Shown here in pieces: positions 493 through 19,454 of a stretch of 19,454 bases of DNA (position 1 is the first letter of the stretch; every line of letters starts with the position of its first letter). Made by a program: the position numbers and the translations under genes. The notes under the pieces were generated by a model that did not search any database, was not told where the DNA came from, and saw nothing but the letters and a program-made list of their open reading frames with translations. This stretch comes from a virus (Duplodnaviria; Heunggongvirae; Uroviricota; Caudoviricetes): positions 1 to 19,454 of the IMG/VR virus record IMGVR_UViG_2563366840_000007. The stretch is one strand, 5' to 3'.

Positions 493-500
493 GGATCATC

Positions 501-611: not shown

Positions 612-654
612 GCAGCGGGTGATATCCGGCGCGTGAATAAAAAGGTGAATACCG

Positions 655-2151
655 ATGACGATAAGCTTTAACACCATTCCGTCGAATACGCTGGTTCCGT
701 TGTTTTATGCGGAAATGGATAACCAGGCGGCGAATACTGCACAGGACAGCGGAGCATCGCTGCTGATTGGTCATGCCAATAACGGCGCAGAGATTGTTGC
801 CAACAGTCTGGTACTGATGCCGTCGGCAGACTATGCACGCCAGATTTGTGGTGCGGGAAGTCAGCTGGCGCGTATGGTCGAGGCTTATCGCCAGACCGAT
901 CCGTTTGGCGAGCTGTATGTGATTGCCGTTCCTGAATCCACAGGCGCGGCGGCAACAGTTACGCTGACGGTGACCGGGGCAGCAACCGAAACCGGCACGG
1001 TGAATGTTTATGTGGGACGTACCCGCGTGCAGGCACCGGTGACCAACGGCGATAACGTCGCGACGATTGCCAGCAGTATCCAGGATGCCATCAATGCCGT
1101 TCCGGCCCTGCCGTTTACGGCCTCATCTTCGGCTGGTGTGGTTACATTGACCGCTCGCCATAAGGGGCTTTGCGGGAATGAAATTCCTGTCAGCCTCAAT
1201 TACTACGGCTTCGGTGGGGGCGAAGTGCTGCCAGCGGGCGTACAGATTGCCGTGGCGACGGGGACCGCCGGAACGGGCGCTCCGGTTCTCACCGGCGCGG
1301 TGGCTGCAATGGCGGATGAGCCGTTTGATTATATCGGTCTGCCGTTCAACGACACGGCCTCTGTTAACACGCTGGTGACCGAGATGAACGATACCAGCGG
1401 TCGCTGGAGCTATGCGCGTCAGCTGTATGGTCATGTGTATACGGCAAAGGCCGGCACACTGTCAGAACTGGTGAACGCAGGTGACCAGTTTAACCAGCAG
1501 CACATTACCCTGGCGGGATACGAAAAAGAGACCCAGACGCCTGCCGACGAGCTGGCGGCAAGCCGTACCGCCCGCGCAGCGGTGTTTATCCGCAACGATC
1601 CGGCACGTCCCACGCAGACCGGTGAGCTGGTGGGTATGCTGCCTGCGCCGAAGGGGAAACGGTTCACGATGACCGAACAACAGACCCTGCTGTCTCATGG
1701 CGTGGCAACGGCGTATGTCGAAAGCGGGGTGCTGCGCATTCAGCGTGATGTCACCACGTACAGGAAAAACGCTTACGGTGTTGCGGATAACAGCTACCTC
1801 GACAGCGAGACGCTGCATACCAGCGCGTATGTGCTGCGCAAACTGAAATCCGTCATTACCAGTAAGTACGGGCGTCACAAGCTTGCCAGCGACGGTACCC
1901 GCTTTGGTCCCGGTCAGGCGATTGTCACACCGGCGGTGATCAAAGGGGAACTGCTGGCAACCTACCGTCAGCTTGAGCGTGCGGGGATCGTGGAAAACTA
2001 CGAACTGTTTAAGCAGTACCTGGTTGTGGAGCGTGATGCCAGCGATCCGAACCGCCTGAACACGCTGTTCCCGCCTGACTATGTTAACCAGTTGCGTGTC
2101 TTTGCCGTGGTTAACCAGTTCCGTCTTCAGTATTCAGAGGAGTCTGCATAA
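655..2151 (+). CDS. Contractile tail sheath protein (Mu gpL-like)
   Basis: 498-aa ORF; AAGGTG RBS at 644-649 precedes ATG 655; size and position (directly before tube gene) are typical of sheath; translated sequence recognised as sheath family. Confidence 0.9.
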   Translation: MTISFNTIPSNTLVPLFYAEMDNQAANTAQDSGASLLIGHANNGAEIVANSLVLMPSADYARQICGAGSQLARMVEAYRQTDPFGELYVIAVPESTGAAATVTLTVTGAATETGTVNVYVGRTRVQAPVTNGDNVATIASSIQDAINAVPALPFTASSSAGVVTLTARHKGLCGNEIPVSLNYYGFGGGEVLPAGVQIAVATGTAGTGAPVLTGAVAAMADEPFDYIGLPFNDTASVNTLVTEMNDTSGRWSYARQLYGHVYTAKAGTLSELVNAGDQFNQQHITLAGYEKETQTPADELAASRTARAAVFIRNDPARPTQTGELVGMLPAPKGKRFTMTEQQTLLSHGVATAYVESGVLRIQRDVTTYRKNAYGVADNSYLDSETLHTSAYVLRKLKSVITSKYGRHKLASDGTRFGPGQAIVTPAVIKGELLATYRQLERAGIVENYELFKQYLVVERDASDPNRLNTLFPPDYVNQLRVFAVVNQFRLQYSEESA

Positions 2152-2507
2152 TGGCCCGTATCGGGGGAACCTGTTATTTCAAAATTGACGGTCAGCAGCT
2201 ATCGCTGACCGGCGGCATTGAGGTGCCCATGAACAGGACGGTCAATGATGACATCATCGGCCTGGACGGTTCAGTGGACCGCAAGGAAACTCACCGTGCG
2301 CCCTATGTCAAAGGGACCTTCAAGGTGCCGAAGAATTTTCCGGTGAGCAAAATCACCTCGTCTGATGAGATGACCATCACTGCCGAGCTGGCGAACGGTC
2401 AGGTCTATGTACTGTCGTCTGCCTGGCTGCACGGCGAAGCGAACCATAATGCCGAAGAAGGCACGGTTGATCTTGAGTTCCACGGTGAAGAAGGGGATTA
2501 CCAGTGA
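2151..2507 (+). CDS. Tail tube protein (Mu gpM-like)
   Basis: 118-aa ORF; ATG overlaps the sheath stop (TAATG); GAGGAG RBS upstream; sheath-tube order. Confidence 0.85.
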   Translation: MARIGGTCYFKIDGQQLSLTGGIEVPMNRTVNDDIIGLDGSVDRKETHRAPYVKGTFKVPKNFPVSKITSSDEMTITAELANGQVYVLSSAWLHGEANHNAEEGTVDLEFHGEEGDYQ

Positions 2508-2827
2508 TTGAGCTTGTACTTAAAAAACCGATCATCGCCCACAAAGAAACACTGCATGTGCTGGAAATACGTGAGCCTACGTATGACGAGATTGAGGCGC
2601 TGGGGTTCCCTTTCTCTGTTTCACCTGATGGTGGTATGAAAATGGACAGTCAGGTAGCGCTGAAATATATCCCGCTTCTGGCCGGGATCCCGCGCTCGTC
2701 TGCAGCGCAGATGACGAAGCTGGATATTTTCAAGGCAGGCATGATTGTAATGCGTTTTTTTACCGGCTTGGAGACGGAAGAGACCTCCGGAAGCGATTCT
2801 ACAATGTCGCGTGGTTCTGGAAATTAA
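2504..2827 (+). CDS. Tail assembly chaperone (G-like); probable -1 frameshift extension to 2919
   Basis: GTG start overlaps tube stop (GTGA); 107-aa ORF located between tube and tape measure genes, the conserved chaperone position. Confidence 0.7.
   Translation: MIELVLKKPIIAHKETLHVLEIREPTYDEIEALGFPFSVSPDGGMKMDSQVALKYIPLLAGIPRSSAAQMTKLDIFKAGMIVMRFFTGLETEETSGSDSTMSRGSGN
2755..2761 (+). other. Candidate -1 programmed frameshift slippery heptamer T_TTT_TTT
   Basis: Seven consecutive T in the X_XXY_YYZ register of the chaperone frame; the -1 frame is open from 2761 to a TGA at 2917-2919, overlapping the tape measure start. Confidence 0.4.
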
Positions 2828-2911
2828 ACCCCCTTGAACTTCGCCGGACGGCTATTTCCCACTTTGCTGATCTGGAGGCAGAGGCCGTCCGTATAAATGA
2901 GGAGATGAAGC

Positions 2912-4819
2912 ATGGCTGATAATTTTCAGCTGAAAGCCATCATCACCGCCGTTGACAGGCTGTCCGGCCCGCTTAAAGGTATGCAGCGTCAGCTTAAGGG
3001 GTTTCAGAAAGAAGTCTCCAGCCTTGCTCTGGGCGCTGCCGGGGCGGGTACTGCAATAATGGGGGCACTGGCACTCCCTGTAAAATCAGCCATCACCCTT
3101 GAATCGAAGATGGCTGATGTCCGCAAAGTGGTAGACGGTCTGGATACGCCGGATGCGTTTAAGGCCATGACGGAGCAGGTACGCGCTTTGTCTACTGAGC
3201 TTCCCATGTCTGCAGACGGGATCGCGGAAATTGTGGCGGCTGGCGGTCAGGCCGGGATTGCACGTGATGAACTGATGCAGTTTGCCACTGATGCGGTGAA
3301 GATGGGCGTGGCCTTTGATACCACGGCTGAAGAGTCCGGGCAGATGATGGCCCAGTGGCGTACTGCGTTTAATATGACGCAGGATGAAGTGGCCGGGCTG
3401 GCTGACAAAATCAACTACCTTGGTAATACCGGCCCGGCGAATGCGAAGAAAATCTCCGATATTGTTACGCGTATTGGTCCTTTAGGTGGTGTTGCAGGTG
3501 TGGCTTCCGGCGAAATCGCGGCAATGGGGGCAACCATTGCCGGGATGGGCGTGGAGTCAGAAATTGCCGCCACAGGGATCAAGAACTTCATGCTTTCCCT
3601 GACCGCGGGAAATTCCGCGACAAAATCGCAGAAACAGGCATTACGTTTTCTGCGGATCAATCCGAAGAAATTAGCTGCTGATATGCAGAAAGATGCCCGG
3701 GGAACCATGCTGTCTGTACTGGATGCGATGGCTAAAGTGCCCAAAGAAAAACAGGCAGCTGTGCTGAATGCCCTGTTCGGGAAAGAGTCTCTGGGCGCGA
3801 TAGCACCTCTGCTGACTAACCTTGATTTGTTGCGTACCAACTTCAGGCGGGTTGCGGATTCCCAGCAGTATGGCAGTTCGATGCAGAAGGAATATGCTTC
3901 GAGGGCAGCGACGACGGAAAACCAGCTTTTACTTCTGCAAAATCAACTTGATGCCATTTCTTCCACGCTGGGGGAAACGTTTCTTCCTGAGGTTAATGAT
4001 GGTCTTGAAGCGGTAAAACCGCTCCTTGAGGAAGTGAGAACGTTTGTCCGTGAAAACCCGGAGCTCGTTAAGACCATTGCTAAAATCGGTCTGGCCTTAC
4101 TGACGGTGGGAGCCGCTGCAGGCTCTTTGTCCAGAATTATGAAAGTTCTCGGCGGTGTGATGAATATGACGCCTGCTAAGGGGCTGATTGCTCTTCTGGT
4201 TGGTGGCGCTTACCTCATTATTGATAACTGGGAAACCGTAGGTCCTGTCATAAAAAAAGTCTGGCACGTGGTGGATGAAACGGCGCAGGCGATGGGGGGA
4301 TGGGAAACTGTTCTGAAAGCGATTGCCCTGTTTATGGCAACCAAATGGGTTGCTGACGTTACCAAATCCATTACCGCAGTGACCAGAGAGATGCGTACGC
4401 TGGGGAAGGTATCGGCAGAAACGGGATTGATGGGGAAAGGCCGCGGCTTTATCGGGAAGGCCGGGGTATATGGTTTTCTGGGAACCCTGATGTATGAGCC
4501 GGTTAAAGATACTCTGGAAAGTGTTGTTCCTGAAGATACGGTTAACTGGCTGGATAATAAAGGGCTGTTTCTGGCTTCAGACTGGACGCCTTTTTTTGAT
4601 CGTAAAGAGTACGAGCAGTATCAGGCCAGCCTGAGTCAGTACAAACCCAATGTTCCGCTGTTGAATCCATCTTCTTCCATGACACAGCACAGCGAGCTGA
4701 AAGTCACGTTCGAGAATGCTCCGCCAGGTATGAAGATAATTGATGTACCGGGCAAAGCCGATCCCCTGATGAAAATCACGCACGATGTGGGGTATTCCCC
4801 TTTTCGTTTTCCACGATAA
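2912..4819 (+). CDS. Tail tape measure protein
   Basis: 635-aa ORF, Ala/Gly-rich and predicted helical N-terminal half, hydrophobic segment mid-protein; follows the chaperone pair; GAGGAG RBS upstream. Confidence 0.85.
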   Translation: MADNFQLKAIITAVDRLSGPLKGMQRQLKGFQKEVSSLALGAAGAGTAIMGALALPVKSAITLESKMADVRKVVDGLDTPDAFKAMTEQVRALSTELPMSADGIAEIVAAGGQAGIARDELMQFATDAVKMGVAFDTTAEESGQMMAQWRTAFNMTQDEVAGLADKINYLGNTGPANAKKISDIVTRIGPLGGVAGVASGEIAAMGATIAGMGVESEIAATGIKNFMLSLTAGNSATKSQKQALRFLRINPKKLAADMQKDARGTMLSVLDAMAKVPKEKQAAVLNALFGKESLGAIAPLLTNLDLLRTNFRRVADSQQYGSSMQKEYASRAATTENQLLLLQNQLDAISSTLGETFLPEVNDGLEAVKPLLEEVRTFVRENPELVKTIAKIGLALLTVGAAAGSLSRIMKVLGGVMNMTPAKGLIALLVGGAYLIIDNWETVGPVIKKVWHVVDETAQAMGGWETVLKAIALFMATKWVADVTKSITAVTREMRTLGKVSAETGLMGKGRGFIGKAGVYGFLGTLMYEPVKDTLESVVPEDTVNWLDNKGLFLASDWTPFFDRKEYEQYQASLSQYKPNVPLLNPSSSMTQHSELKVTFENAPPGMKIIDVPGKADPLMKITHDVGYSPFRFPR

Positions 4820-4843
4820 CGCAGTCCTTTTTGAGGTCAGTCT

Positions 4844-6220
4844 ATGGATTTATCCTCATTTCCCACCCGACCTTCATTACTTTCGTCGTCTTCAGGCTGG
4901 CGTGACAGACTTCAGGACGCGTCATTTCGCGGCGTGCCGTTTAAGGTTGAAGAAGAAAGTGCGGGAACCGGTCGCCGTGTGGAAACACATGAATACCCGA
5001 ACCGCGACAAGCCCTATACCGAAGATCTGGGAAAAGTCACTTTCCGCCCGTCCATCACAGCTTATGTGGTGGGAGATGACTGCTTTGACCAGCGCGATCG
5101 CCTGATTGAAGCGCTGAATAAACCCGGTCCCGGCAAGCTTGTCCACCCGACATATGGTGAGCTGAAAGTCTGTGTTGACGGGGAAGTTCGGGTCAGCACA
5201 TCGAAAAGTGAAGGGCGTATTGTCCGCTTTGACCTGAAGTTTGTCGAAGCAGGAGAACTCTCTTACCCCACATCAGGTGCGGCGACGGCGCAGACGCTGA
5301 TGTCATCCTGTTCTGCACTGGATGACTGCATCAGTGACAGTTTCAGTGGTTTCAGTATCGATGGCGTGGCGGATTTTGTGCAGAACGACGTCGTCGGTAA
5401 TGCCAGCACAATGCTTGGGTATGTTTCTGATGCGATGAAAGTGGTGGATTCTGCCGTATCGGATGCCGCCAGACTGTTGCAGGGGGATATCTCGGTACTT
5501 CTGCCGCCGCCATCGTCAGGCAAAAATTTCGTTGAGCAGGTGCAGAAAATGTGGCGTACCGGGAAGCGCCTTTATGGTAACGCCAGCGACCTGGTCACCA
5601 TGATCAAAACGCTTTCCGGTGTCAGCCTCGGCAGCGATCTGCAACCGCGCGGCGTCTGGAAAACGGACAGTAAAACCACCGCCACGGCGACGCAGCAGCG
5701 TAACGTGGTTGCCAGCACCCTTCGTACGACCGCAATCAGCGAAGCGGCGTATGCCGTCACCCGATTGCCTGCGCCAACAACTTCCGCGGTGATGCAGAAT
5801 TCCGCAGTGGGGCAGGCAACAACACCCGCGCAGAGCACTGGCTGGCCTTCCGTCACGCATCCGGCACTGAACAATGCACCGGCGGTGAAAAACACGGTTG
5901 ACCTGCCGACGTGGGAAGAACTGACTGACATTCGCGACACACTGAATACGGCAATTGATAAGGAGTTGTCCCGTACAACCAGCGATGCGCTGTTTCTGGC
6001 GCTGCGCCGGGTGAAAGCAGATCTGAATGCGGATATCAACACGCGCCTTGAACAGTCTGCACGGATCATTCAGCGCACACCGGATGAGGTTTTACCCGCG
6101 CTGGTGCTGGCGGCGACCTGGTTTGATAACGCGGCGCGTGACGCGGACATTATCCGGCGTAATGCCATTACGCATCCCGGCTTTGTGCCGGTGATCCCTC
6201 TGAAGGTGCCAGTGCAATGA
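4844..6220 (+). CDS. DNA circulation protein (Mu N / gp43-like)
   Basis: 458-aa ORF immediately after tape measure; GAGG RBS; position and size match Mu N homologues. Confidence 0.75.
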   Translation: MDLSSFPTRPSLLSSSSGWRDRLQDASFRGVPFKVEEESAGTGRRVETHEYPNRDKPYTEDLGKVTFRPSITAYVVGDDCFDQRDRLIEALNKPGPGKLVHPTYGELKVCVDGEVRVSTSKSEGRIVRFDLKFVEAGELSYPTSGAATAQTLMSSCSALDDCISDSFSGFSIDGVADFVQNDVVGNASTMLGYVSDAMKVVDSAVSDAARLLQGDISVLLPPPSSGKNFVEQVQKMWRTGKRLYGNASDLVTMIKTLSGVSLGSDLQPRGVWKTDSKTTATATQQRNVVASTLRTTAISEAAYAVTRLPAPTTSAVMQNSAVGQATTPAQSTGWPSVTHPALNNAPAVKNTVDLPTWEELTDIRDTLNTAIDKELSRTTSDALFLALRRVKADLNADINTRLEQSARIIQRTPDEVLPALVLAATWFDNAARDADIIRRNAITHPGFVPVIPLKVPVQ

Positions 6221-7296
6221 ACGACAATGTCACGCTACGGGTAAATGGCCGGGAGTGGAATGGCTGGACATCGGTGCGCATCGGTGCCGGTGTTGAACGG
6301 CTGGCGCGGGATTTCAGTGTGGAGATCACTCGCCAGTGGCCGGGAGATGAGGGTATCACCACGCTTCAGCCGCGCATTAGAAACGGTTCAAAAGTGGAAG
6401 TGCTGATTGGTGATGAGCTGGTGATCACCGGCTGGGTGGAGGCGACTCCCGTTCGTTACGATGCCCGTTCGGTCAGCACCGGTATTGCCGGACGTAGTCT
6501 GACGGCTGACCTGATTGACTGTGCAGCCGAACCGACACAGTTTAACGGACGCTCGCTGGTGCAGATTGCGCAGGCGCTTGCTGCGCCTTTCGGCATTGAG
6601 GTGGTGAACAGCGGTGCGCCGTCGGGTGTTATTCCTGATGTTCAGCCTGATCACGGTGAAACGGTGATTGAGGTAATCAACAAAATACTCGGTCAGCAGC
6701 AGGCACTGGCTTACGACGACCCGCACGGCAGGCTGGTGATTGGCGGTATTGGCTCAACGCGGGCACATACCGCGCTGGTACTCGGGGAAAACATCCTTTC
6801 CTGCGATACGGAGAAGAGTATCCGGGAGCGATTTTCTGTTTACCAGGTGGCGGGGCAGCGTGCCGGGAACGACGATGATTTCGGTGAGGCCACCACCACC
6901 GCGCTGCGGGCCCGCACAGAGGACGCATTTATTGCCCGTTACCGTCCGATGTATATCAGGCAGACAGGGCAGGCTACGGGGGCAGGTTGTATTGCCCGTG
7001 CGGACTTTGAAGCCCGACAACGGGCGGCGCGGACGGATGAAACCACCTATGTGGTGCAGGGCTGGCGACAGGGTAACGGTACGCTGTGGCAGCCCAACCA
7101 GCGGGTGATTGTCTTCGATCCGGTCTGTGGTTTCGACAATACCGAACTGCTTGTCTCGGAAGTCACGTTTACTCAGGACCAGAACGGCACCCTGACGGAA
7201 ATCCGTGTCGGCCCACCTGATGCTTATCTGCCTGAACCCGAAGCCCCCGGCGCGCGGAAAAAGAAAAAAGCCAGAGTACAGGAGGACCCGTTCTGA
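6217..7296 (+). CDS. Baseplate hub / tail protein (Mu P / gp44-like)
   Basis: 359-aa ORF; ATGA start/stop overlap with the upstream gene; conserved order N-P-spike. Confidence 0.75.
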   Translation: MNDNVTLRVNGREWNGWTSVRIGAGVERLARDFSVEITRQWPGDEGITTLQPRIRNGSKVEVLIGDELVITGWVEATPVRYDARSVSTGIAGRSLTADLIDCAAEPTQFNGRSLVQIAQALAAPFGIEVVNSGAPSGVIPDVQPDHGETVIEVINKILGQQQALAYDDPHGRLVIGGIGSTRAHTALVLGENILSCDTEKSIRERFSVYQVAGQRAGNDDDFGEATTTALRARTEDAFIARYRPMYIRQTGQATGAGCIARADFEARQRAARTDETTYVVQGWRQGNGTLWQPNQRVIVFDPVCGFDNTELLVSEVTFTQDQNGTLTEIRVGPPDAYLPEPEAPGARKKKKARVQEDPF

Positions 7297-7844
7297 TGAG
7301 GACGATTGAAGCCATGCAGCGACAACTTCTCGGCCTGATTGGGCGGGCAGTGGTGAAAAGCATCAGTGCCGCCACGAAATGTCAGACCGTGGATGTGTCC
7401 CTGATTGCCGGTGAACCCAAAGCCGGGGTTGAACATCTTGAACCCTACGGTTTTACCGCAAGGGCAAACAGCGGTGCGGAAGCGGTGGTGTTGTTTCCGG
7501 ATGGCGACCGTTCTCATGCGGTGGTTGTTACGGTGTCGGACCGGCGCTACCGCCTGAAAGGGCTGCAGACGGGTGAGGTGGCGGTCTATGACGATCAGGG
7601 GCAGTCCGTGACGCTGACCCGGGAGGGGATCGTGGTGGACGGTGCAGGTAAAACGATCACGTTTCGCAATTCACCTAAAGCACGTTTTGAAATGGACCTG
7701 GAAGTGACCGGACAGGTGAAAGACCTGTGCGACTCCACCGGCACCACCATGTCAGCGATGCGGCTTGCCTATAACGGGCATCGTCACAGAGAGAACGGTC
7801 AGGGCAGTAACACCGACAAACCTGATAAAGCGATGGAGGCATGA
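7296..7844 (+). CDS. Baseplate assembly protein V / spike (Mu gp45-like)
   Basis: 182-aa ORF; TGATG overlap with upstream gene; gpV-like size and position. Confidence 0.8.
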   Translation: MRTIEAMQRQLLGLIGRAVVKSISAATKCQTVDVSLIAGEPKAGVEHLEPYGFTARANSGAEAVVLFPDGDRSHAVVVTVSDRRYRLKGLQTGEVAVYDDQGQSVTLTREGIVVDGAGKTITFRNSPKARFEMDLEVTGQVKDLCDSTGTTMSAMRLAYNGHRHRENGQGSNTDKPDKAMEA

Positions 7845-8269
7845 TGGAACTGTGGCTGACGGTGAACGGTAAACGCACCTGCGCCAGCGCACCGCTGGAT
7901 CCGCTGACCCGCGCCGTGGTGATTTCCCTGTTTACCTGGCGGCGGGCGGAGCCTGATGACAACGCCGGCGTCCCGATGGGATGGTGGGGGGATACCTGGC
8001 CTGCGGTACAGAATGACCGTTACGGCTCCCGACTGTGGCTGCTTCAGCGCAGCAAACTGACCAATCAGCTGGTGCAGACGGTAAGGGGGTATATCCGCGA
8101 ATGCCTGCAATGGATGATTGATGACGGCGTGGTGTCCCGTATTGATCTGGATATCCGCCGCACCGGGATTAATGAACTGGGTAACAGTATCACTCTCTGG
8201 CGTCGTGACGGACCGGTAATGATTTCTTTTGATGATCTGTGGAGTGCGATAACGCATGGCGGACAGTGA
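7841..8269 (+). CDS. Baseplate protein, GP46 family (Mu gp46-like)
   Basis: 142-aa ORF coupled to neighbours; conserved position between spike and J-like wedge. Confidence 0.75.
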   Translation: MMELWLTVNGKRTCASAPLDPLTRAVVISLFTWRRAEPDDNAGVPMGWWGDTWPAVQNDRYGSRLWLLQRSKLTNQLVQTVRGYIRECLQWMIDDGVVSRIDLDIRRTGINELGNSITLWRRDGPVMISFDDLWSAITHGGQ

Positions 8270-9314
8270 ATTTCAGCGCCCGACGCTGGCAGAAAATATC
8301 AGTATGCTCCGTAACGATTTATTCGCCAGGCTGGACGTCAGCGACACGCTCCGGCGCATGGATGAAGACGTGCGGGCAAAGGTGTATGCGGCGGCGCTGC
8401 ATACGGTTTACGGTTACATCGATTATCTGGCAATGAACATGCTGCCTGACCTGTGCGATGTGTCCTGGCTGGCGCGACATGCTGCGATGAAACGGTGTCC
8501 GCGCAAGGGGGCCACGTCTGCCAGCGGGTATATGCGCTGGGAAGGTGTCAGCGATGGCCTGAAGGTGACCGCCGGGAGTGTTATTCAGCGCGATGACCTG
8601 GTTCAGTACACGGCAACTTCTGATGCAACCAGCTCCGGTGGTGTCCTGCGCGTGCCGATCGCCTGCTCAACTGCAGGCGCGGTCGGTAACGCTGACGACG
8701 GTATGGCATTAATCCTGGTCACGCCGGTGAATGGTCTGCCGTCTTCCGGTGTGGCAGATACCCTGACTGGCGGATTCGATACTGAAGATCTGGAAACGTG
8801 GCGCGCCCGCGTCATTGAGCGGTATTACTGGACGCCGCAGGGCGGGGCTGACGGGGACTATGTCGTCTGGGCTAAAGAAGTGCCCGGCATTACCCGCGCA
8901 TGGACATACCGTCACTGGATGGGAACGGGAACTGTCGGTGTGATGATTGCCAGCAGTGACCTGATTAATCCCATTCCGGAAGAATCAACGGAAACGGCGG
9001 CAAGGCAACATATCGGGCCACTGGCCCCGGTGGCAGGCTCTGATTTGTATGTGTTCAGGCCGGTGGCGCATAAAGTGGATTTTCATATCCACGTGACGCC
9101 GGACACACCGGAAATACGGGCTGCCATCACCGCGGAGTTGCGTTCATTCCTGCTGCGTGATGGTTATCCGCAGGGAGAGCTGAAGGTATCGCGTATCAGT
9201 GAAGCGATTTCCGGTGCGAACGGGGAATACAGCCATCAGTTGCTTGCCCCGGCGGACAATATCACCATTGCGAAAAATGAACTGGCGGTTCTGGGGACGA
9301 TTTCATGGACGTGA
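8256..9314 (+). CDS. Baseplate wedge J-like protein (Mu gp47-like)
   Basis: 352-aa ORF; overlaps neighbours on both sides; J-like size and position. Confidence 0.8.
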
Positions 9315-9889
9315 CAAACGATGATTACATCCGTCTGTTGTCGGCACTGCTGCCCCCTGGTCCGGCGTGGTCAGCCAGCGATCCGGCGATTGCCGGTGCA
9401 GCACCGTCATTAACCCGCGTTCATCTGCGTGCAGATGCCCTGATGCGGGAGCTGGATCCGCGCACCACCACCGAACTGATAAATCGCTGGGAGCGTCTGT
9501 GCGGCCTGCCGGATGAATGTATTCCCGCAGGGACACAGACCCTTCGCCAGCGTCAGCAACGGCTGGATGCGAAGGTTAATCTGGCGGGCGGCATCAATGA
9601 GGATTTTTACCTTGCACAGCTTGCTGCCCTGGGCAGACCAGACGCCACCATCACGCGATACGATAAAAGCACGTTCACCTGCTCATCGGCCTGTACTGAT
9701 GCAGTGAATGCGCCGGAATGGCGGTATTACTGGCAGGTCAACATGCCAGCCGCCACCAACACCACCTGGATGACATGTGGCGATCCCTGTGATTCCGCAC
9801 TGCGTATCTGGGGGGACACCGTTGTCGAGTGCGTGCTTAACAAACTCTGCCCGTCGCATACCTACGTAATTTTTAAATATCCGGAGTAA
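9305..9889 (+). CDS. Tail protein Mu gp48-like (DUF2313/YmfQ-like)
   Basis: 194-aa ORF directly upstream of the tail fibre gene, as in Mu and e14 (ymfQ position). Confidence 0.75.
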
Positions 9890-9892
9890 TCC

Positions 9893-10660
9893 ATGCATCG
9901 TATAGACACGAAAACCGCGCAGAAGGATAAGTTCGGCGCGGGTAAAAACGGTTTTACCCGTGGTAACCCCCAGACTGGCACGCCTGCCACCGATCTGGAT
10001 GATGACTACTTTGACATGTTGCAGGAGGAGCTTTGCAGCGTTGTAGAGGCATCCGGTGCCAGTCTCGAGAAGGCGCGGCACGACCAGCTGCTTACCGCGC
10101 TTCGTGCGCTGCTGTTAAGCCGCAAGAATCCGTTTGGTGATATCAAATCGGACGGCACAGTACCAACGGCTCTCGAAAACCTTGGTTTGGGAGAAGGTTC
10201 GGCATTACCCGTTGGCGTGCCTGTTCCGTGGCCTTCAGCCACTCCGCCAACAGGCTGGCTGAAATGCAATGGTGCACCTTTTTCTGCCGAAGAGTATCCG
10301 GAACTGGCAAAAGTTTATCCGACAAATAAATTGCCAGATTTACGTGGTGAGTTTATTCGTGGCTGGGATGACGGGCGTGGGGTCGATTCAGGGCGAGCGC
10401 TGCTGTCCGCACAAGGTGATGCTATAAGGGACATATCAGGGAAGCTCTTGGGACTTATGACCACTGCGGGAAGCCAGAGGACAGCAGACGAGTGGGTAAC
10501 AGGGCCATTTAATGCTGTATACGAAGGCGGCGCTGGTCAAACAACCTCATCGCCCGGTAATAGGTATGACGTAGGTTTTTCCGCCGCCAGAGTTGTACCA
10601 ACTGCGGAAGAAAACCGACCACGTAACATTGCATTTAACTACATTGTAAGGGCATCATGA
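9893..10660 (+). CDS. Tail fibre protein: constant N-terminal ~97 aa fused to the currently expressed variable C-terminus (158 aa)
   Basis: 255-aa ORF with GGAG RBS; C-terminal region resembles tail-collar/fibre tips; contains the left inversion crossover site at codons ~94-101 (ALENLGLGE). Confidence 0.85.
10170..10195. other. Invertase crossover site, left (gix/pix/hix-like)
   Basis: CTCTCGAAAACCTTGGTTTGGGAGAA: imperfect palindrome around a central TT; 14 bp from the centre outward are identical to the reverse complement of the right site. Confidence 0.7.
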
Positions 10661-11268
10661 TGACCACAAAAAAAATCACTTTGGATGAAAACGGATTTGC
10701 CACGGAAGCTGGCTTTATTACCGTTTACAACTACAACGGAGAAACGCGGGAATATATTTCTACATCAACTGAATATCTCGCTGTCGGCGTCGGTATTCCG
10801 GCGTATTCCTGTTTAGATGCTCCTGGTACATATAAGGCTGGTTATACTATCTGCCGTTCAGCAGATTTAAAATCATGGGAATATATGCCAGACCATCGCG
10901 GTGAAATCGTTTTTAGCACCGAAACAGGGGAATCAAAAGAAATCACAGCTCCGGGTGATTACCCTGATAATACAACCACTATCGCCCCGTTAACCCCATA
11001 CGATAAATGGGATGGTGAGAAATGGGTGACGGATACCGAGGCACAGCACGGCGCAGCAGTAGATGCAGCAGAAGCACAGCGCCAGTCGCTGATTGATACT
11101 GCAATGGCCTCCATCAGTCTGATTCAGCTGAAATTGCAGGCCGGACGTAAACTGACGCAGGCAGAAACAACCCGCCTTAACGCTGTGCTGGATTACATTG
11201 ACGCGGTGACGGCAACAGATACCAGCACCGCGCCGGATGTCATCTGGCCTGAACTGCCGGAGGCGTAG
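10657..11268 (+). CDS. Tail fibre assembly protein (expressed orientation)
   Basis: 203-aa ORF, ATGA-coupled to the fibre gene; C-terminus (...[26 protein letters not shown]) is the conserved assembly-protein tail, also mirrored in the alternate cassette. Confidence 0.85.
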
Positions 11269-11680
11269 GCCATTCAATATCTGGCGCACCGGAAGTATCA
11301 ACCAGCTCCAGTGCATCCAGATAATCCAGCCACAAATTATATTGCGCCAGTTCCTCACCATTCAGACGACCAATAGCGGCTTTACCGGGCCATTGCTTAC
11401 TGTTCATGTATTCGTTGGCCTGATTAATCAGTTGCTGCTTTTCCAGTTCGGCTGCAGCAATCTGTTCCTCATGTGTTGGTGGTGGAATTTCAGACCATGC
11501 AGGAAAACCATTTTCTCCAGCGATACGGATTTTTCCTTTCGGCGGTAATCCGGAAAACTCAATATACACTTGCTCATCAACTTCAACAGCATCATCTGGC
11601 CATGAGTCAGCTTGAGTGTAATCCTCTTTCATCTCCAGCGGATAGAAAGAGTTTGTAGTCGCGGAATATATGTAATTCAT
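11240..11680 (-). CDS. Tail fibre assembly protein, alternate cassette (silent in this orientation)
   Basis: 146-aa ORF on - strand with GGAG RBS; C-terminus (...[24 protein letters not shown]) is parallel to the + strand assembly protein; convergent overlap with it at 11240-11268. Confidence 0.8.
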   Translation of the reverse strand: MNYIYSATTNSFYPLEMKEDYTQADSWPDDAVEVDEQVYIEFSGLPPKGKIRIAGENGFPAWSEIPPPTHEEQIAAAELEKQQLINQANEYMNSKQWPGKAAIGRLNGEELAQYNLWLDYLDALELVDTSGAPDIEWPTPPAVQAR

Positions 11681-11701
11681 TTTTCACTCCATATAGCTAA
11701 A

Positions 11702-12054
11702 TTAACAGCCTAACGCTAAAAATGAAGCGCCGAGGCCAGGAGTACTGGCTCTGGATATAAATTTAACCGGGTCGGGACTAAAACCTGCACAGGCAATATA
11801 ACCAACATCCCCGCTACCTGGTGTATAGTCTTGTGAGACCAAAACACGCAGACATCTGTTTGGAAATGCAATCGGGAAATGGGTTACTACATCCTGTGCA
11901 ATGCCTGGAGCGCCGATTGAGCCCCACTGAAGAATAAAACCTGATGGTAATTTTTGATATCCAGTATCTGAAACAGAAAGCGTGAAGCTACCCATATCAG
12001 GTATCTGATTCGCCCCTGTCCCTACATTCCTTTTAGCCGCTTCTCCCAAACCAA
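11702..12054 (-). CDS. Alternate tail-fibre variable C-terminal segment (promoterless; fused to the constant region after inversion)
   Basis: - strand frame reads [10 protein letters not shown]... beginning exactly at the right crossover site, in the register that joins ...ENL of the constant region; the track ORF's extra N-terminal codons run into the invertase promoter region and are not a real start. Confidence 0.75.
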
Positions 12055-12066
12055 CGTTTATAAAAA
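12041..12066. other. Invertase crossover site, right
   Basis: TTCTCCCAAACCAACGTTTATAAAAA; its reverse complement TTTTTATAAACGTTGGTTTGGGAGAA shares TTGGTTTGGGAGAA with the left site; lies 55 bp upstream of the invertase ATG. Confidence 0.7.
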
Positions 12067-12120
12067 TGCATAAATAACGAGCAAATGGCATCATTCCTGC
12101 TTTTGTCAGGGAGATCTACC

Positions 12121-12675
12121 ATGCTTATTGGCTATGTACGCGTATCAACAAATGATCAGAACACAGATCTACAACGTAATGCGCTGAACTGTGCAGGATG
12201 CGAGCTGATTTTTGAAGACAAGATAAGCGGCACAAAGTCCGAAAGGCCGGGACTGAAAAAACTGCTCAGGACATTATCGGCAGGTGACACTCTGGTTGTC
12301 TGGAAGCTGGATCGGCTGGGGCGTAGTATGCGGCATCTTGTCGTGCTGGTGGAGGAGTTGCGCGAACGAGGCATCAACTTTCGTAGTCTGACGGATTCAA
12401 TTGATACCAGCACACCAATGGGACGCTTTTTCTTTCATGTGATGGGTGCCCTGGCTGAAATGGAGCGTGAACTGATTGTTGAACGAACAAAAGCTGGACT
12501 GGAAGCTGCTCGCGCACAGGGACGAATTGGTGGACGTCGTCCCAAACTTACACCAGAACAATGGGCGCAGGCCGGGCGATTAATTGCATCAGGCGTTCCT
12601 CGCCAAAAGGTGGCGATCATCTATGATGTTGGTATATCGACACTGTATAAGAAGTTTCCGGTCGGAGATAAATGA
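12121..12675 (+). CDS. pin: Serine DNA invertase (Pin/Gin/Hin/Cin family)
   Basis: Begins MLIGYVRVSTNDQ (catalytic Ser motif of the resolvase/invertase family); 184 aa; GGGAGA RBS; C-terminal HTH region; sits directly beside the invertible fibre segment. The track's upstream ATG at 12085 lacks an RBS and overlaps the crossover region. Confidence 0.9.
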   Translation: MLIGYVRVSTNDQNTDLQRNALNCAGCELIFEDKISGTKSERPGLKKLLRTLSAGDTLVVWKLDRLGRSMRHLVVLVEELRERGINFRSLTDSIDTSTPMGRFFFHVMGALAEMERELIVERTKAGLEAARAQGRIGGRRPKLTPEQWAQAGRLIASGVPRQKVAIIYDVGISTLYKKFPVGDK

Positions 12676-12722: not shown

Positions 12723-12735
12723 ATCACTTAAAGAC

Positions 12736-13605
<870 letters not shown>

Positions 13606-13683
13606 CTAAGCCTTTGAATTTACAAGTACAAAAAGATACTTTTCCTCATAATGTGAATTAATTTTATGTTTCGTTTGATGATT

Positions 13684-13749
13684 GGACCGGTCTCGAAAAC
13701 CGGAGTAGGGGCAACTCTACCGGGGGGGCAAATCCCCCTCTCTCCGCCA
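13684..13749 (+). other. Class II tRNA 3' fragment (tRNA-Ser, anticodon CGA), degenerate; probable relic att site
   Basis: CCGGT-CTCGAAA-ACCGG anticodon stem-loop with CGA anticodon, long variable arm, G-run/CAAAT/CCCCC T-arm lacking the canonical TTC, acceptor 3' strand ending GCCA; no 5' half (D-arm, acceptor 5' strand) is present upstream. Confidence 0.6.
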
Positions 13750-14332
13750 CTTTATCAATGACTTATCTCCCGACTTCCCGCCTTGCTTTTCCTAAACAGA
13801 ACAATCGTAGAATATTCTTGAAGGGTTAGATCGTCACTGTTTTCTGTTCGATACTGTGACATTCAGCACTTGATTCGCTATGGATCTGACAGGAAGGTTT
13901 CGAGCGAAAATCTGCAGTTATTCAGTCGTTTTCTTATCGGTCACCATTATTCTTTTAGACATTGATCCTACAAAGCTGCCGCAAAGTTGGTGGTGGGAAC
14001 TGAAGTTGCGTAGAGAAGGGGTCAATACCCGGAGGCAAACATGGGCTGGCAAAAGTGTAGCGGTATTAGGCGCAGCTATTTAGCCTAGTTATGTTTTATG
14101 AAAACTTGATATCATATAAGTGTCTTACTTATTGGCTGTAAATAAGGTTTTCTAAGGAATTGTTTCTTTAGTATCATTTGTAACTGTAACGGAATTTATA
14201 ATCCTTTACTTTATTTTTACGGTATTTTTTATCACACCCTATTTTTTATGTGGTTTTTTATACTGAAGTTTGGCAAAGTGAACTTTATATGCATATACTT
14301 CATCCTGGTTTCAGTTAAATTGGGTGGATGAT

Positions 14333-15076
14333 ATGGCAACTACATGTTCAGTTATATTGATTTTGGAGTCCTTTGATGTTTATTTCGGAAAAGAGAGTGT
14401 GTTTCTGGATAGAGGTTTATCTGTACTTGTCGACTCTAGCTATAGAGATTTTTTCCTGACATATCCTGAAAGAGTGATAGTGGCGGATTTTGGCGCTGAG
14501 TTTATTAGTCGCTATTTGAAAGCTAATAACTTAAGGGATATTTCTGATTGTAGGGAATATCCATCTTATTTAAAAATAAACTTTGCTGACTTCAGTTTAA
14601 TTAAAGGATTAATTAGTTGGGCTAATCACTGTGCTGAATATATAGAAATTTTTGATGAGTCTATTGCTTTTACATGTCTCTCTGCATTTTCTTCTGAAAA
14701 ACAATTTGGAGTATTTCTGTTTGGATGTTTGAAAAGCACAGGGGCTAAAGTTAAAACGATTATTCATACGGATTTATCTGCACCATGGCATCTTAAGGAT
14801 ATATCATCAAGATTATATCTCAGCGAAAGTTTACTAAAGAGGAAATTGAAAGAAGAGGGGGTATCATTCAGTAAGATCCTACTTGATGAGAGGATGCAAA
14901 TGGCTGAATATTTACTCAGCACTCGTTGTTATCCTATTAGTAAAGTAGCTAAGGTCTGTGGTTATGCCAGTGTCTCATACTTTACTTATGTATTTAGACG
15001 TTATTTTGGTGTTTCTCCAAGTCAATACTCTCAGAGGAGTTCAGAAAGTAAAATTCTTACTCACCAGGGAATCTAA
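14333..15076 (+). CDS. AraC/XylS-family transcriptional regulator (AppY/Rns-like class)
   Basis: 247 aa from ATG 14333 (GGTGG RBS); C-terminal dual helix-turn-helix region (...KVAKVCGYASVSYFTYVFRRYFGVSPSQY); gene and upstream 250 bp are visibly AT-rich with repeated T-tracts. Confidence 0.8.
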   Translation: MATTCSVILILESFDVYFGKESVFLDRGLSVLVDSSYRDFFLTYPERVIVADFGAEFISRYLKANNLRDISDCREYPSYLKINFADFSLIKGLISWANHCAEYIEIFDESIAFTCLSAFSSEKQFGVFLFGCLKSTGAKVKTIIHTDLSAPWHLKDISSRLYLSESLLKRKLKEEGVSFSKILLDERMQMAEYLLSTRCYPISKVAKVCGYASVSYFTYVFRRYFGVSPSQYSQRSSESKILTHQGI

Positions 15077-15082
15077 TCATTG

Positions 15083-15345
15083 TTCTTGCCCCCTTATTTC
15101 CAGACAGGGGGTGTATCTTAAGTTAACGTTACCCGCTGACGTCGATATTCTCGCGGAGAGCGATAACCCAACGTACTGTGCGGATGGTTTTCATTGTAAT
15201 GTTCGATCGCCACTGCAAGATTATGCAATGCCGTTCTTATATTCGGTTTCGGCATGAACGCGATGTAGTCTTCCTTCATCGTTTTCACGAACCTTTCTGC
15301 CATTCCATTACTCTGAGGACTGCTGATTACCCATGAGGAGTACAA
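15083..15345 (-). mobile_element. Truncated IS2-like (IS3 family) element: terminal inverted repeat plus 3' end of the transposase gene
   Basis: - strand reads ...CCCCCTGTCTGGAAATAAGGGGGCAAG, resembling the IS2 terminal repeat; adjacent ORF encodes ...[16 protein letters not shown]...[19 protein letters not shown], the C-terminal integrase-core tail of IS2 OrfB; the upstream two-thirds of the element is absent. Confidence 0.6.
15118..15345 (-). pseudogene. IS3-family transposase OrfB C-terminal fragment
   Basis: Only about 64 C-terminal residues of an rve-domain transposase; the first ~10 codons of the track ORF do not match the family. Confidence 0.6.
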
Positions 15346-15565: not shown

Positions 15566-15611
15566 ATTCGTAATGCGAAGGTCGTAGGTTCGACTCCTAT
15601 TATCGGCACCA
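15566..15611 (+). other. tRNA-Thr 3' fragment (thrW-like 46-nt att core); probable prophage attR
   Basis: ATTCGTAATGCGAAGGTCGTAGGTTCGACTCCTATTATCGGCACCA contains half an anticodon stem-loop, a canonical GGTTCGACTCC T-arm and an acceptor strand ending CCA; no 5' half upstream; P22/SfV-type phages use a 46-bp core identical to the thrW 3' end. Confidence 0.7.
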
Positions 15612-15890
15612 TTAAAATCAAATTGTTACGTAAGATCTTATCATTCTCCCACCAAAAAATTATCTTAATGTAACAGCTGGTGTAAGTAAATTCTATCAAC
15701 GAAGATCAATCTTATCTACTGACCAAAAAGGCCTGATAGGGCTTCGCTCACTATACATCCTTGGCTGCAGGTTTAGTTGTACACCACTCCTAAATTTAAT
15801 GTGTTGGCAATGTGTTCAATAAAGCTCGAACAAATTAGCTCATTATGATCGGTTAATACTTCAACTTCTGGTTGCATGATTGTTTGTCCG

Positions 15891-15927
15891 TAAAAAGATA
15901 ACGCGCCTGCCGGGTAGTAGCAGGCGC
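15891..15927 (-). terminator. Rho-independent terminator downstream of the toxin gene
   Basis: GCGCCTGC-CGGGTAGTA-GCAGGCGC perfect 8-bp stem followed on the - strand by a TTATCTTTTTAC run. Confidence 0.45.
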
Positions 15928-15992
15928 ATTACGCAATAGGTAAACAAGGGAGGAAGTTCAGAAATGTAAATCGGGAAGGTTGTACGCAATGT

Positions 15993-16672
<680 letters not shown>

Positions 16673-16690
16673 TACAGTTCTCCACTATTG

Positions 16691-16912
16691 TCAGTTCAGG
16701 GTGATGCTCATCAGGCAGGTATAGGGCCCATTGCGGTCCTGGCGGCGTTCGGCGTATACCGCGAGGACTCCGGCGATATCCGGAACGTCCCTGTCGGTGT
16801 AATGACAGACGCTACCGTGCCACTGGTATTTGCCGGTGCAGTAGCGAAAGATTCGGGACTCAGGATGCTGGCGGTATATCGTCATTGCCCTGCGTTTACT
16901 GATAATTTTCAT
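16691..16912 (-). CDS. ykfH: DUF987-family protein (YkfH/YeeT/YfjY type)
   Basis: 73 aa from ATG 16912 (GAGG RBS); the track's upstream start would overlap the RadC-like gene. Confidence 0.65.
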   Translation of the reverse strand: MKIISKRRAMTIYRQHPESRIFRYCTGKYQWHGSVCHYTDRDVPDIAGVLAVYAERRQDRNGPYTCLMSITLN

Positions 16913-16920
16913 GTAATACC

Positions 16921-17397
16921 TCAAAGCAGACCGTGTTCTGCGAACGAATAGATTTGCCTGCCACCGACAATCAGATGGTCAGGGACACGGATATCCACCA
17001 GCTGAAGCACCTGAACCAGTCGCTGCGTGAGGGTTTTGTCGGCCTGGCTAGGTGTCGTCTCGCCGGAAGGATGGTTATGCGCGAGTATCACCGCCGCCGC
17101 GTTGAAGTGCAGAGCACGTTTGACCACCTCCCGGGGATGCACCTCGGTGCGGTTAATCGTGCCGGTGAAGAGCGTTTCATGGGCAATCAACTGATTCTGG
17201 TTGTCCAGATACAACACCCGGAACTCTTCCCGTTCAAGCGCGGCCATATGCAGTCGCAGCCATTCACGTACGGCGTGGGTAGAGGTGAAGGCTACGCCGG
17301 GCTCATGCAGGTGGCGGTCCAGAGCCCTGAGCGCCCGCTGAATGAGACGCCGGTCCTGTGGCGTCATCTCGCCGGGTAAAAAGGAAAGCTGTTTCAT
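16921..17397 (-). CDS. ykfG: RadC-like JAB-domain protein
   Basis: 158 aa; contains the HNHPSG...S..D metalloprotease motif typical of RadC/JAB proteins. Confidence 0.8.
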   Translation of the reverse strand: MKQLSFLPGEMTPQDRRLIQRALRALDRHLHEPGVAFTSTHAVREWLRLHMAALEREEFRVLYLDNQNQLIAHETLFTGTINRTEVHPREVVKRALHFNAAAVILAHNHPSGETTPSQADKTLTQRLVQVLQLVDIRVPDHLIVGGRQIYSFAEHGLL

Positions 17398-17412
17398 CTG
17401 TTGCTCCTTCGG

Positions 17413-17871
17413 TCAGTCGATAATACGCAGAATGGCGTGAGCCTCTGGATGTTGCATGGCATACTCCCGCAGGCGGTAATAGTGTGCGGTCATCGCGTCA
17501 CATTCTGTACGGCAGGCATGGTGGCTATACGCAATCAGGCAGACAGCAATACCTGCTGCTTCTGCACTCATTTGGGCATCGTTACCGTTCAGGCAGTTAA
17601 ACAGACGCCATGTCTCATCGTTGTCAGGCTCGGGGGACATAAATGCGCCGCCATTGCTGAGGGTGTAGAACGACCAGATACCACCGCTGTAGCCCTCACA
17701 GAAGCGGTCCATCCAGGCGAAGATATGCGGCTCCAGGAGTAGCCACTGCGGGATAGCGCCAAAGTACTGTGGCCAGAAATCGATACGCTGTTCATCGGGG
17801 ACCGGCGTGACGGTCAGTTCAAATTCGGGTTGGTTAGCGGGTGCGAGGTCGTGCTGCGTCTGTGTTGTCAT
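17413..17871 (-). CDS. yafX: Putative antirestriction protein (YafX/YfjX family)
   Basis: 152 aa from ATG 17871 with GGAGA RBS 9 nt upstream; the track's longer N-terminal extension lacks an RBS. Confidence 0.7.
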   Translation of the reverse strand: MTTQTQHDLAPANQPEFELTVTPVPDEQRIDFWPQYFGAIPQWLLLEPHIFAWMDRFCEGYSGGIWSFYTLSNGGAFMSPEPDNDETWRLFNCLNGNDAQMSAEAAGIAVCLIAYSHHACRTECDAMTAHYYRLREYAMQHPEAHAILRIID

Positions 17872-17968
17872 GGGTATGTCTCCGTCAATAAAAACGCCAG
17901 CGGCGATGGCTGGCGTATGGGGATATAAAGTGTGTTCGGGGAGGTGAATGCGGGTAAATGCTTCGCGA

Positions 17969-18208
17969 TCAGCGGGTGGCCGTGTCTGTACGGATGCCTG
18001 AGGTGCGGATATAGCGGTTAAGACCTTCACCGGCATCCGGCTCAAAGTTCCATGCCCGCCAGACCATCCGGCCTTCAGTATCACGAACCACCAGACGGAA
18101 GTGACTGCCCTGGTCGTCTTCGAGTGTGATATTGCTGTACGTGGTAGTGACCGCTTGCGCTTGTCTCCGGGTGAAAGGCCCCGGTGGCAGCAACACGGAT
18201 TGGGTCAT
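17969..18208 (-). CDS. ykfF: DUF905-family small protein
   Basis: 79 aa from ATG 18208 with GGAG RBS; the 150-aa track ORF is an artificial N-terminal extension across the intergenic region. Confidence 0.6.
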
Positions 18209-18284
18209 TTTCGGGCTCCTGATAAAAGAAAACCCCGGCAGCCTGCTAGCTGTCGGGGTGGATTTGCTGGGGAAGATACTACTA

Positions 18285-18752
18285 TCAGTCGTTGCTGCAG
18301 TCTCCGAGAGTGGACAGAACTTTCTCAGTGTTCTTCCGGTCCGCAGTGAAGGTCCCTGCTTTGTGGTCATTGACGTAGACGTCGAACTGCCCGGCCTCAG
18401 AGATATTGCTGATGAAGTCAAACCAGGCGTTATCGCCGTTACGCCAGCCCAGGCTGGACGGAATAATGTACTGCTGGTGATCCATCACTACGGTGATAGT
18501 AGTGTCGTCATCGTGCGAACTGACCATCTTGTCATCGGCAAGGGTAAGAAAGACTGAATGCTGATAGAAACCATTCTGGTCCGGGTTCCCTGTGCAGTTG
18601 ATGGTAAACGTCTTTCCGCTGGCTTCGGTCACGCTGTATTCCGTATTGCCCTGACCGTAACCCTGCTGCCAGAACCCCGGGATAGCAGAGGCATTAAAGC
18701 TCGCGAGCAGTACACCCGCCAGCATAAACCGACTTAGTGAAAGTATTGTCAT
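18285..18752 (-). CDS. ykfB: Secreted protein of unknown function (signal peptide)
   Basis: 155 aa; N-terminal hydrophobic stretch ending ...FNASA|IPG consistent with a signal peptidase I site. Confidence 0.55.
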
Positions 18753-18774
18753 TCTTGTCTCCTTTGTCGTTGTT

Positions 18775-19218
18775 TTATTCCTGATTGTCAGGGTTCGAGG
18801 GTATCAGTAGCTGCCCCATCAGTTTGCCGTCATGGGCGTACTCAAAGTATTTTTCTTTGGTATACGGGTCCGTCACCTCCTGGTATTCCAGTTTGATGTT
18901 ATCGGCAATACACAGCGCATTCATCAGCGGCTGGATGGTTTTTTCCTGCATATCCACGAGGTAGTAGTAACTACCGCCCTCGCAGCCATCGGGCGACTCA
19001 CGGGTACGTAAGACCTGCAGGGTGAGACCTGATGAAAAGCCAACCTGTGACCATTCTTCGCTGACATCATCCTGCCGACTGACCACATCGCTGAAGCGCG
19101 GAGGCGTGAGGTCCTTAAATTTACTGATAGCTTTCAGGTCATCACTCCTGTCATCGCAGGCGCTCAGAAACAGAGTGGTGGCAACCATCGCCAGCAGAGG
19201 TAGTGTTTTACATTTCAT
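18775..19218 (-). CDS. yafY: Lipoprotein of unknown function
   Basis: 147 aa; signal peptide with lipobox LSAC (MKCKTLPLLAMVATTLFLSAC); start codon overlaps the upstream gene's stop (TAATG). Confidence 0.6.
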   Translation of the reverse strand: MKCKTLPLLAMVATTLFLSACDDRSDDLKAISKFKDLTPPRFSDVVSRQDDVSEEWSQVGFSSGLTLQVLRTRESPDGCEGGSYYYLVDMQEKTIQPLMNALCIADNIKLEYQEVTDPYTKEKYFEYAHDGKLMGQLLIPSNPDNQE

Positions 19219-19454
19219 TATTTTTTCCCTGAAATCAGACGTACCACTTTGGCAAAGACATAAATGCCGACGAAAATACCCACCGGCACGCCGACGAACG
19301 GTGTCAGCGCGACACTGGCAGCACCGGCTGCGCCACCTCCCGTCAGCAGTGCGGCAACAGTGGCAAGGGTCAGGGCCGCGAGACTGTCGGACACCCCGGT
19401 TTTGTTCAGAATGATGACGATGACAACAATGGCGATAATGGCAATAACGGGCAT
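19218..19454 (-). CDS. Small hydrophobic membrane protein, possibly 5'-partial at window end
   Basis: 78 codons, strongly hydrophobic with Gly/Ala-rich predicted transmembrane segments; ORF reaches the window edge. Confidence 0.4.
   Translation of the reverse strand: MPVIAIIAIVVIVIILNKTGVSDSLAALTLATVAALLTGGGAAGAASVALTPFVGVPVGIFVGIYVFAKVVRLISGKK

Follow-up and report, generated by a model that had tools for sequence, protein, structure and literature searches.

We conclude that the 66-nt tRNA-like fragment at 13684-13749 of the window (the whole 19,454-nt stretch of DNA that was analysed) is very probably a dead attR scar of a phage that formerly occupied serU, carried together with 278 bp of host flank into a prophage at thrW. 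The features on which this reading draws are collected in Table 1.

Table 1. Coordinates of the phage, host and mobile-element features of the window.
Feature	Position	Strand	Evidence
Late region of SfV/e14-like prophage: tail sheath, tube, tape measure, baseplate, tail fibre, invertible fibre segment, pin	1..12675	+	
pin invertase	12085-12675	+	Pfam Resolvase + HTH_7
LEM-3-like GIY-YIG nuclease gene, last gene at phage right end	12736..13509	-	Pfam PF22945, E=2.4e-14
Phage-side arm (P arm) of serU attachment site	13561..13683	+	MB15 attR arm; present in 20/28 IMG/VR copies
Last 66 nt of serU tRNA-Ser(CGA), probable displaced attR copy of the 66-bp att core	13684..13749	+	serU alignment, MB15 direct repeat
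serU fragment, anticodon arm	13687-13703	+	anticodon CGA at 13694-13696
serU fragment, long variable arm	13704-13721	+	
serU fragment, T arm	13722-13738	+	
serU fragment, acceptor 3' strand	13739-13745	+	
serU fragment, discriminator G and CCA	13746-13749	+	
278 bp of host chromosome, normally between serU and yodB (B' arm)	13750..14027	+	native serU match
Last 56 bp of IS630-family element, remainder deleted	14028..14083	+	52/56 to IS630-family copy 3' end, plasmid pESC818
AraC-family (YdeO/GadX-like) regulator	14333..15076	+	Pfam HTH_AraC/HTH_18; best NCBIfam YdeO, below cut-off
IS2 (IS3-family) transposase gene 3' end, truncated	15118..15345	-	Pfam rve_3; NCBIfam IS2 TnpB residues 224-290
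Phage-side arm of thrW attachment site, Sf-phage type	15373..15565	+	similarity to O157 Sp1 and to the attP/int-proximal region of phi458 and Shigella phages SfI, SfII, SfIV
Last 46 nt of thrW, in-situ attR and left boundary of CP4-6-like island	15566..15611	+	exact match to thrW 31-76
CP4-6-like island: ykfI toxin/antitoxin, DUF987, JAB/RadC, antirestriction, ykfF, ykfB, yafY-like	15612..19454	-	MLI104K1 annotation

The fragment, read on the + strand as GGACCGGTCTCGAAAACCGGAGTAGGGGCAACTCTACCGGGGGGGCAAATCCCCCTCTCTCCGCCA, gives a gap-free alignment with positions 25-90 of serU, the 90-nt tRNA-Ser(CGA) gene of E. coli K-12, with 64 of 66 positions identical. The original prediction had described a degenerate 3' fragment of tRNA-Ser(CGA) with class II arms and had proposed a serU alignment as a check; the alignment bears the description out. 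The 5' part is missing as predicted (the first 24 nt of the tRNA are absent, and the DNA upstream of 13684 has no similarity to the serU 5' end or to the rest of the gene), and the predicted T-loop GG lies at 13727-13728, where it replaces T54/T55 (T54/Psi55), breaks the conserved T54-Psi55-C56 and constitutes the sole difference from K-12 serU. Re-reading of the upstream sequence, where a complete gene would have refuted the prediction, gave no complete tRNA: ARAGORN called 0 tRNA genes and Rfam at gathering thresholds called no tRNA in the window, and a permissive Rfam search (E<=10) returned a tRNA-Sec-like match of 21.5 bits against a 47-bit threshold. Neither ARAGORN nor Rfam at either threshold thus gave any usable sign of a complete or cryptic tRNA at the fragment. 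The fragment does not form the full cloverleaf, with acceptor stem and D arm, of a functional class II tRNA-Ser gene. When folded, the 66-mer keeps three hairpins with an unremarkable energy (z = -1.35). A promoter and terminator scan of 13400-14400 found nothing within the fragment, its sole match being a promoter-like site upstream of the regulator gene (patE, see below), and RefSeq records have no annotated feature under the fragment match. The best match of the permissive Rfam search was to the family RF04351 (Plastid-psbl-rps4 3'UTR), at 13695-13746 on the - strand and below gathering (31.8 bits, E=8e-4). This match is antisense to the tRNA-Ser fragment along its full length and looks like an artefact of a family that resembles the antisense of a tRNA-Ser 3' half; RF04351 may itself be largely a model of the tRNA-Ser 3' half in reverse complement.

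Homology to K-12 continues past the tRNA: the match is 344 bp long (97.1% identity), of which 66 nt belong to the tRNA and 278 bp to the region between serU and yodB. In a BLAST search with 13561-14323, 5,423 of 5,426 complete E. coli genomes were matched, nearly all of them by 13684-14027 at the native serU locus; the best native loci were 99.6% identical to a query composed of 501 nt of K-12 mtfA-serU followed by the 344 nt of the window. The fragment is not a chance match, because the homology runs on for 278 bp into the serU downstream flank, and a tRNA 3' end joined to its natural downstream flank therefore marks the piece as E. coli chromosomal DNA. Judged from its sequence, the fragment with its flank has the structure of an attR junction, as opposed to a free-standing att repeat or a phage tRNA. 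The thrW region, in which the piece now lies, is presumably ~1.75 Mb from the serU locus on the K-12 map.

The phage side of the junction was traced with a chimeric query, in which the window's GIY-YIG arm, fragment and flank were joined to K-12 sequence extending into yodB. The predicted arrangement was found at native serU in 4 genomes. MB15 carries a complete SfV/e14-like prophage of ~40 kb at native serU, in the order mtfA, intact serU, three cargo genes, integrase, early genes, cI/cro, lysis, terminase and head, followed by the tail series as in the window, pin, GIY-YIG, the serU fragment and yodB. Its direct repeat (attL in the intact serU, attR in the fragment) is 66 nt long and identical in extent to 13684-13749, and in the 45 nt upstream of the core the window differs from the MB15 attR arm at 2 positions. 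Like an attR, the window's fragment starts where the direct repeat starts and ends at the tRNA 3' end, is preceded by phage DNA and is followed by the 278 bp from between serU and yodB; the 66-nt piece is the att core of an MB15-type phage. The four bases 5' of the 62-nt core (13684-13687) are GGAC in the window and MB15, which extends the serU identity to 66 nt; O157-type copies (O157 Sp1 and 6 IMG/VR loci) have GGGT in their place. GGAC and GGGT mark two variants of one phage arm, and their core boundaries may differ. Phages and islands are documented to integrate at serU (PMC8190617, PMC2608844, PMC7545054). Elements that use it include Sp14 (Sakai), PP_SE11-6, PAI-serU and SerU-LTIIb, and in the SerU-LTIIb prophage (KU052038), which sits at native serU, the depositors marked a 62-nt pseudo-tRNA-Ser next to yodB.

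The late region of the window is a gene-for-gene match to the ORF series of annotated prophages in MLI104K1, MB15 and CH4794, and the GIY-YIG gene at its right end, annotated as WP_000355484.1 in the RefSeq records of G4/9, MB15, CH4794 and MLI104K1, could be extended to 13560 from an upstream TTG. Just upstream of pin, 20-nt inverted repeats at 10177-10196 and 12040-12059 (95% complementary, 1843 nt apart) flank oppositely oriented tail-fibre and tail-fibre-assembly ORFs; together with pin they look like a Gin/Cin/Pin-type invertible host-range segment. Just downstream of pin, 12653-12712 gave a partial, sub-threshold match to the Shigella sRNA CssrB (24.5 bits, E=0.067), which covers the terminal hairpin alone and is probably a shared terminator.

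The thrW fragment that had been predicted nearby on the same strand is present, 46 nt long and 1.88 kb downstream. In CH4794 the prophage lies between intact thrW and a 46-nt thrW fragment, and in both CH4794 and O157 the intact thrW and the integrase are at the prophage's other end. The cI-like, Cro and YmfL proteins of CH4794 and MB15 are identical, whereas the integrases differ: WP_001132557.1 abuts thrW in CH4794 and WP_044325874.1 lies at serU in MB15. O157:H7 CP-933H/Sp1 has the scar arranged as in the window, followed by the P4-like Sp2 (cf. PMC8190617). From these comparisons the thrW fragment is a genuine local junction in a tandem array of the prophage and a CP4-6-like island. The island genes are named after the MLI104K1 annotation, the locus of which is 98.8% identical to the window over 13842-16000; the island toxin-antitoxin is of the ykfI/yafW type. 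For the serU fragment, no second copy was found in the window, contrary to its proposed use as a delimiter to be paired with a partner repeat, and the other prophage end in the relatives has thrW and a thrW-type integrase, so it offers no cognate serU partner. Since the phage uses another integrase and att site (thrW), the serU piece bounds nothing at this locus. Its serU-locus flank and the arm of a native-serU phage likewise mean that it delimits no element here, and a search of the genome for a partner repeat would therefore define none. The original prediction had offered two origins for the region. Capture of an old attachment site is supported by the serU-locus flank and the MB15-type arm; successive integrations hold for the thrW fragment, with its tandem prophage and CP4-6-like island, but not for the serU piece. 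The two tRNA pieces have different histories.

Downstream of the host flank lies a short module centred on the AraC-family gene. The 56 bp that follow the flank are terminal IS bases, so the 14027/14028 boundary is a deletion joint and not an IS terminus; for the same reason, a flank ending at an IS630 insertion in a TA was ruled out. The window AraC protein is identical at 243 of 247 aa (98%) to the product of the sole AraC gene of O157:H7 CP-933H/Sp1. The CP-933H regulator Z0321 is PatE, which activates acid resistance and represses LEE genes (PMC2907692, PMC10877973), and which has been described as an RpoS-dependent activator of acid resistance. From its position and family, the AraC gene of the window is almost certainly the PatE (Z0321) ortholog. 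It is bracketed by the 56-bp IS630-family end and the truncated IS2 end, and the shared module ends at 15331, where homology to ev099, mEp332 and PEC1009 stops.

The module is found in isolated phages as well as in prophages. Positions 13688-15331 are 98% identical to the lambdoid phage genomes ev099, mEp332 and PhiR70_1. In the complete 47.2-kb genome of ev099 the module lies between tail-fibre assembly and the attP-integrase-excisionase segment, and in mEp332, a lambdoid phage of E. coli K-12 that was propagated on K-12 (PMC3442831), it follows the tail-fibre assembly gene. In PEC1009, a lambdoid prophage integrated at att-lambda has the module at its right end. The upstream arm in these carriers differs from that of the window and matches the right arm of SerU-LTIIb at native serU. 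The lambdoid carriers thus have the host flank contiguous with a hybrid att inside a complete isolated-phage genome, as expected of captured host DNA; no packaged SfV-like phage genome with the scar was found, that phage type having been seen as prophages only. In the IMG/VR set, 28 prophage contigs have the exact flank/IS630 joint, with the GIY-YIG arm in 20 of them and the lambdoid arm in 8. Where IMG/VR contigs are long enough, those with the GIY-YIG arm have the thrW arm on the other side, and those with the lambdoid arm have a right side of the ev099 type; the opposite combination occurs in no IMG/VR contig that reaches far enough. The flank/IS630 deletion joint is identical from copy to copy, which speaks for a single origin of the module. 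Among 5,426 complete E. coli genomes, 517 (9.5%) matched at least 80% of an arm-fragment-flank query, compared with the 4 genomes that have the GIY-YIG arm at native serU, i.e., the scar is ~100 times commoner. The exact flank/IS630 joint was found in none of 185,579 species-representative genomes, and a limited literature search found no paper on an ectopic serU scar.

Between 12500 and 15000, strain G4/9 matches the window with 100% identity; identity is limited to 12041-15629 and the flanks differ. The whole window is in no complete RefSeq E. coli genome. In G4/9 (NZ_CP060073.1 1820000-1869999) native serU is gone: shiA and a yedN fragment now flank an IS3-family copy, and the deletion spans yeeJ, asnT, mtfA, serU and yodB and runs onward through fliE-R. 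The prophage-borne 66-nt relic is the sole serU-derived DNA of that genome.

These data suggest the following sequence of events. Phages that integrate into serU have their own version of the gene's last 62-66 nt, and their integration displaces the chromosomal serU 3' copy to the right end of the prophage, still joined to serU-downstream DNA. Here the whole joint (right arm, 66-nt serU end, serU-yodB DNA) is now part of a phage genome, in the non-essential interval between the last late gene and att. In bio-type imprecise excision of phage lambda, attR and neighbouring host DNA are retained at the cost of int. We infer a similar excision from serU, in which attR was taken with adjacent host DNA and the old int end was lost; judged from the layout, such excision and capture is the most likely route into a phage genome, homologous recombination between IS copies being an alternative. 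Recombination with another phage may then have supplied the new attP-int module together with the IS-flanked patE gene, and an internal deletion would have trimmed the host flank to 278 bp. The module would then have passed from one phage family to the other, for which recombination inside the shared ~340 bp of serU core and flank is the simplest means. Capture of patE from the serU locus was also considered. A native serU locus followed by the IS630 end and patE was sought and found in none of the 5,426 complete E. coli genomes, and patE was therefore probably not captured there in the same event; it probably came from the accessory region of the partner phage rather than from the serU locus.

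A chromosomal rearrangement could in principle have produced the same joint. In that case a serU prophage and a thrW prophage would have recombined by inversion or translocation, with the flank trimmed later and without capture by a phage. Related prophages do occupy serU and thrW in E. coli (MB15, CH4794), O157:H7 has prophages at serU (Sp14) and thrW (Sp1/Sp2) (PMC8190617), and the flank does end at a deletion joint. However, the joint is present in the complete isolated-phage genomes ev099, mEp332 and PhiR70_1; carriers such as CH4794 gave two places in the search that included the fragment and flank, consistent with native serU having been kept (the second place is known from the search match alone); and the flank, just 278 bp long, does not vary among carriers, although these span two phage families and two sites (thrW, att-lambda). 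Because the joint occurs in isolated phages and is identical across families and sites, and native serU was apparently kept, we consider a rearrangement distinctly improbable.

Some retained role of the relic, which would be compatible with a scar origin, has to be weighed against the condition of the sequence itself. Among the 28 IMG/VR copies the T-arm state is TT in 17, GG in 8, GT in 1 and a one-G deletion, located in the T-stem G run, in 2. The GG is lineage-specific (the window, G4/9, CH4794 and the 8 IMG/VR copies), and TT is kept in O157, PEC1009 and MB15. The G run where T stem and loop meet is a hot spot of mutation across copies, and most changes make the homopolymer longer or shorter. 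Elsewhere the fragment region has been hit by IS insertions and, in MLI104K1, by an IS1-mediated replacement. In MLI104K1, 26184-29395 (corresponding to 13657-13841 of the window) is an IS1-corA-ysgD-IS1 composite that replaces the serU-fragment segment, and a duplicated or translocated chromosomal corA (Mg/Co transporter gene) has thus come to lie inside the prophage end. The serU fragment is an unconstrained, decaying relic, the GG being part of the decay, because there is no selection on it as a tRNA; its persistence is attributed to hitch-hiking with the linked and selected patE.

The candidate functions are those of a secondary attB, an integrase decoy or a ~340-bp handle for the pickup of patE, and that the relic has been kept for any of them we regard as very unlikely. 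In their favour, two unrelated arms, each with a counterpart at native serU, meet the scar and patE module exactly at the core, and scar carriers greatly outnumber the genomes with the GIY-YIG arm at native serU; but no element inserted at the pseudo-site was seen, the insertions there being IS insertions and the IS1 replacement, and the core accumulates mutations. A putative secondary att site or recombination handle, through which unrelated serU-resident phages would acquire and spread PatE, seems to us an unlikely proposition too, although it would explain both the occurrence of one scar-patE module on two arms and the ~100-fold excess over the live form.

Successive integrations in situ, in which a serU-specific element integrated here and the att repeat marks a second element, can be given very little weight. 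Tandem tRNA-site arrays are common and one exists here at thrW (prophage, thrW fragment, CP4-6-like island), but the thrW locus contains no serU target, the window contains no partner repeat, the DNA 3' of the fragment is serU-locus chromosome and its 5' side is occupied by the usual right end of the same prophage. A decayed phage-encoded cargo tRNA-Ser with a lost 5' end is next to inconceivable: tRNA genes are frequent in lambdoid phages (tRNA-Arg, Gly and Thr in SerU-LTIIb), but the truncation point coincides with the att core boundary and the 64/66 match to host serU continues into the host intergenic flank.

Taken as a displaced attR scar, the fragment represents ordinary phage mosaicism of a familiar kind, an att-site fossil with captured host DNA. 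Its correct label would be an ectopic serU attR relic and not a tRNA pseudogene marking an island border, and software that delimits prophages from tRNA direct repeats could be misled by it. The scar would also serve as a dated, directional marker, indicating that the CP-933H/Sp1-type right-end module with PatE passed through a serU lysogen, and isolated lambdoid phages carry with it a small piece of E. coli chromosomal DNA. Were serU-specific integrases or the native locus still able to recombine with the scar, it might provide a putative route for patE between phage families.

The nearest known counterparts of the scar are the attR pseudo-tRNA-Ser sequences at native serU (SerU-LTIIb, Sp14, PP_SE11-6, MB15), which comprise the last 62-66 nt of the gene in the same orientation and share the downstream host flank with the window; the upstream phage arm is shared with MB15. 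Those attRs sit at serU and bound their element, whereas the window copy is at the thrW locus, within the accessory region of another prophage, bounds nothing and has kept just 278 bp of the flank. Another class consists of tRNA att fragments that remain in situ, such as ptwF, the thrW fragment at the end of CP4-6, and the thrW fragment of the window. Like the serU piece, they are short 3' tRNA leftovers of site-specific integration and lie on the strand of the tRNA; unlike it, they are at their own tRNA locus and paired with an intact gene. The lambda bio phages have the same layout as the scar carriers, in which the last late or b-region gene is followed by a P-core-B' hybrid and host DNA in a packageable phage (ev099, mEp332). 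The scar differs in that its captured host DNA is tiny and non-coding and that a new attP-int has been acquired since; it would reflect an ancient, lineage-fixed event with an inferred excision, as compared with a laboratory variant. The AraC-family morons of prophages (PatE/Z0321, PsrA/PsrB, AppY) usually occupy an att-adjacent position (PMC10877973), which the window AraC gene shares; this likeness concerns the neighbour gene of the scar, and not the serU fragment.
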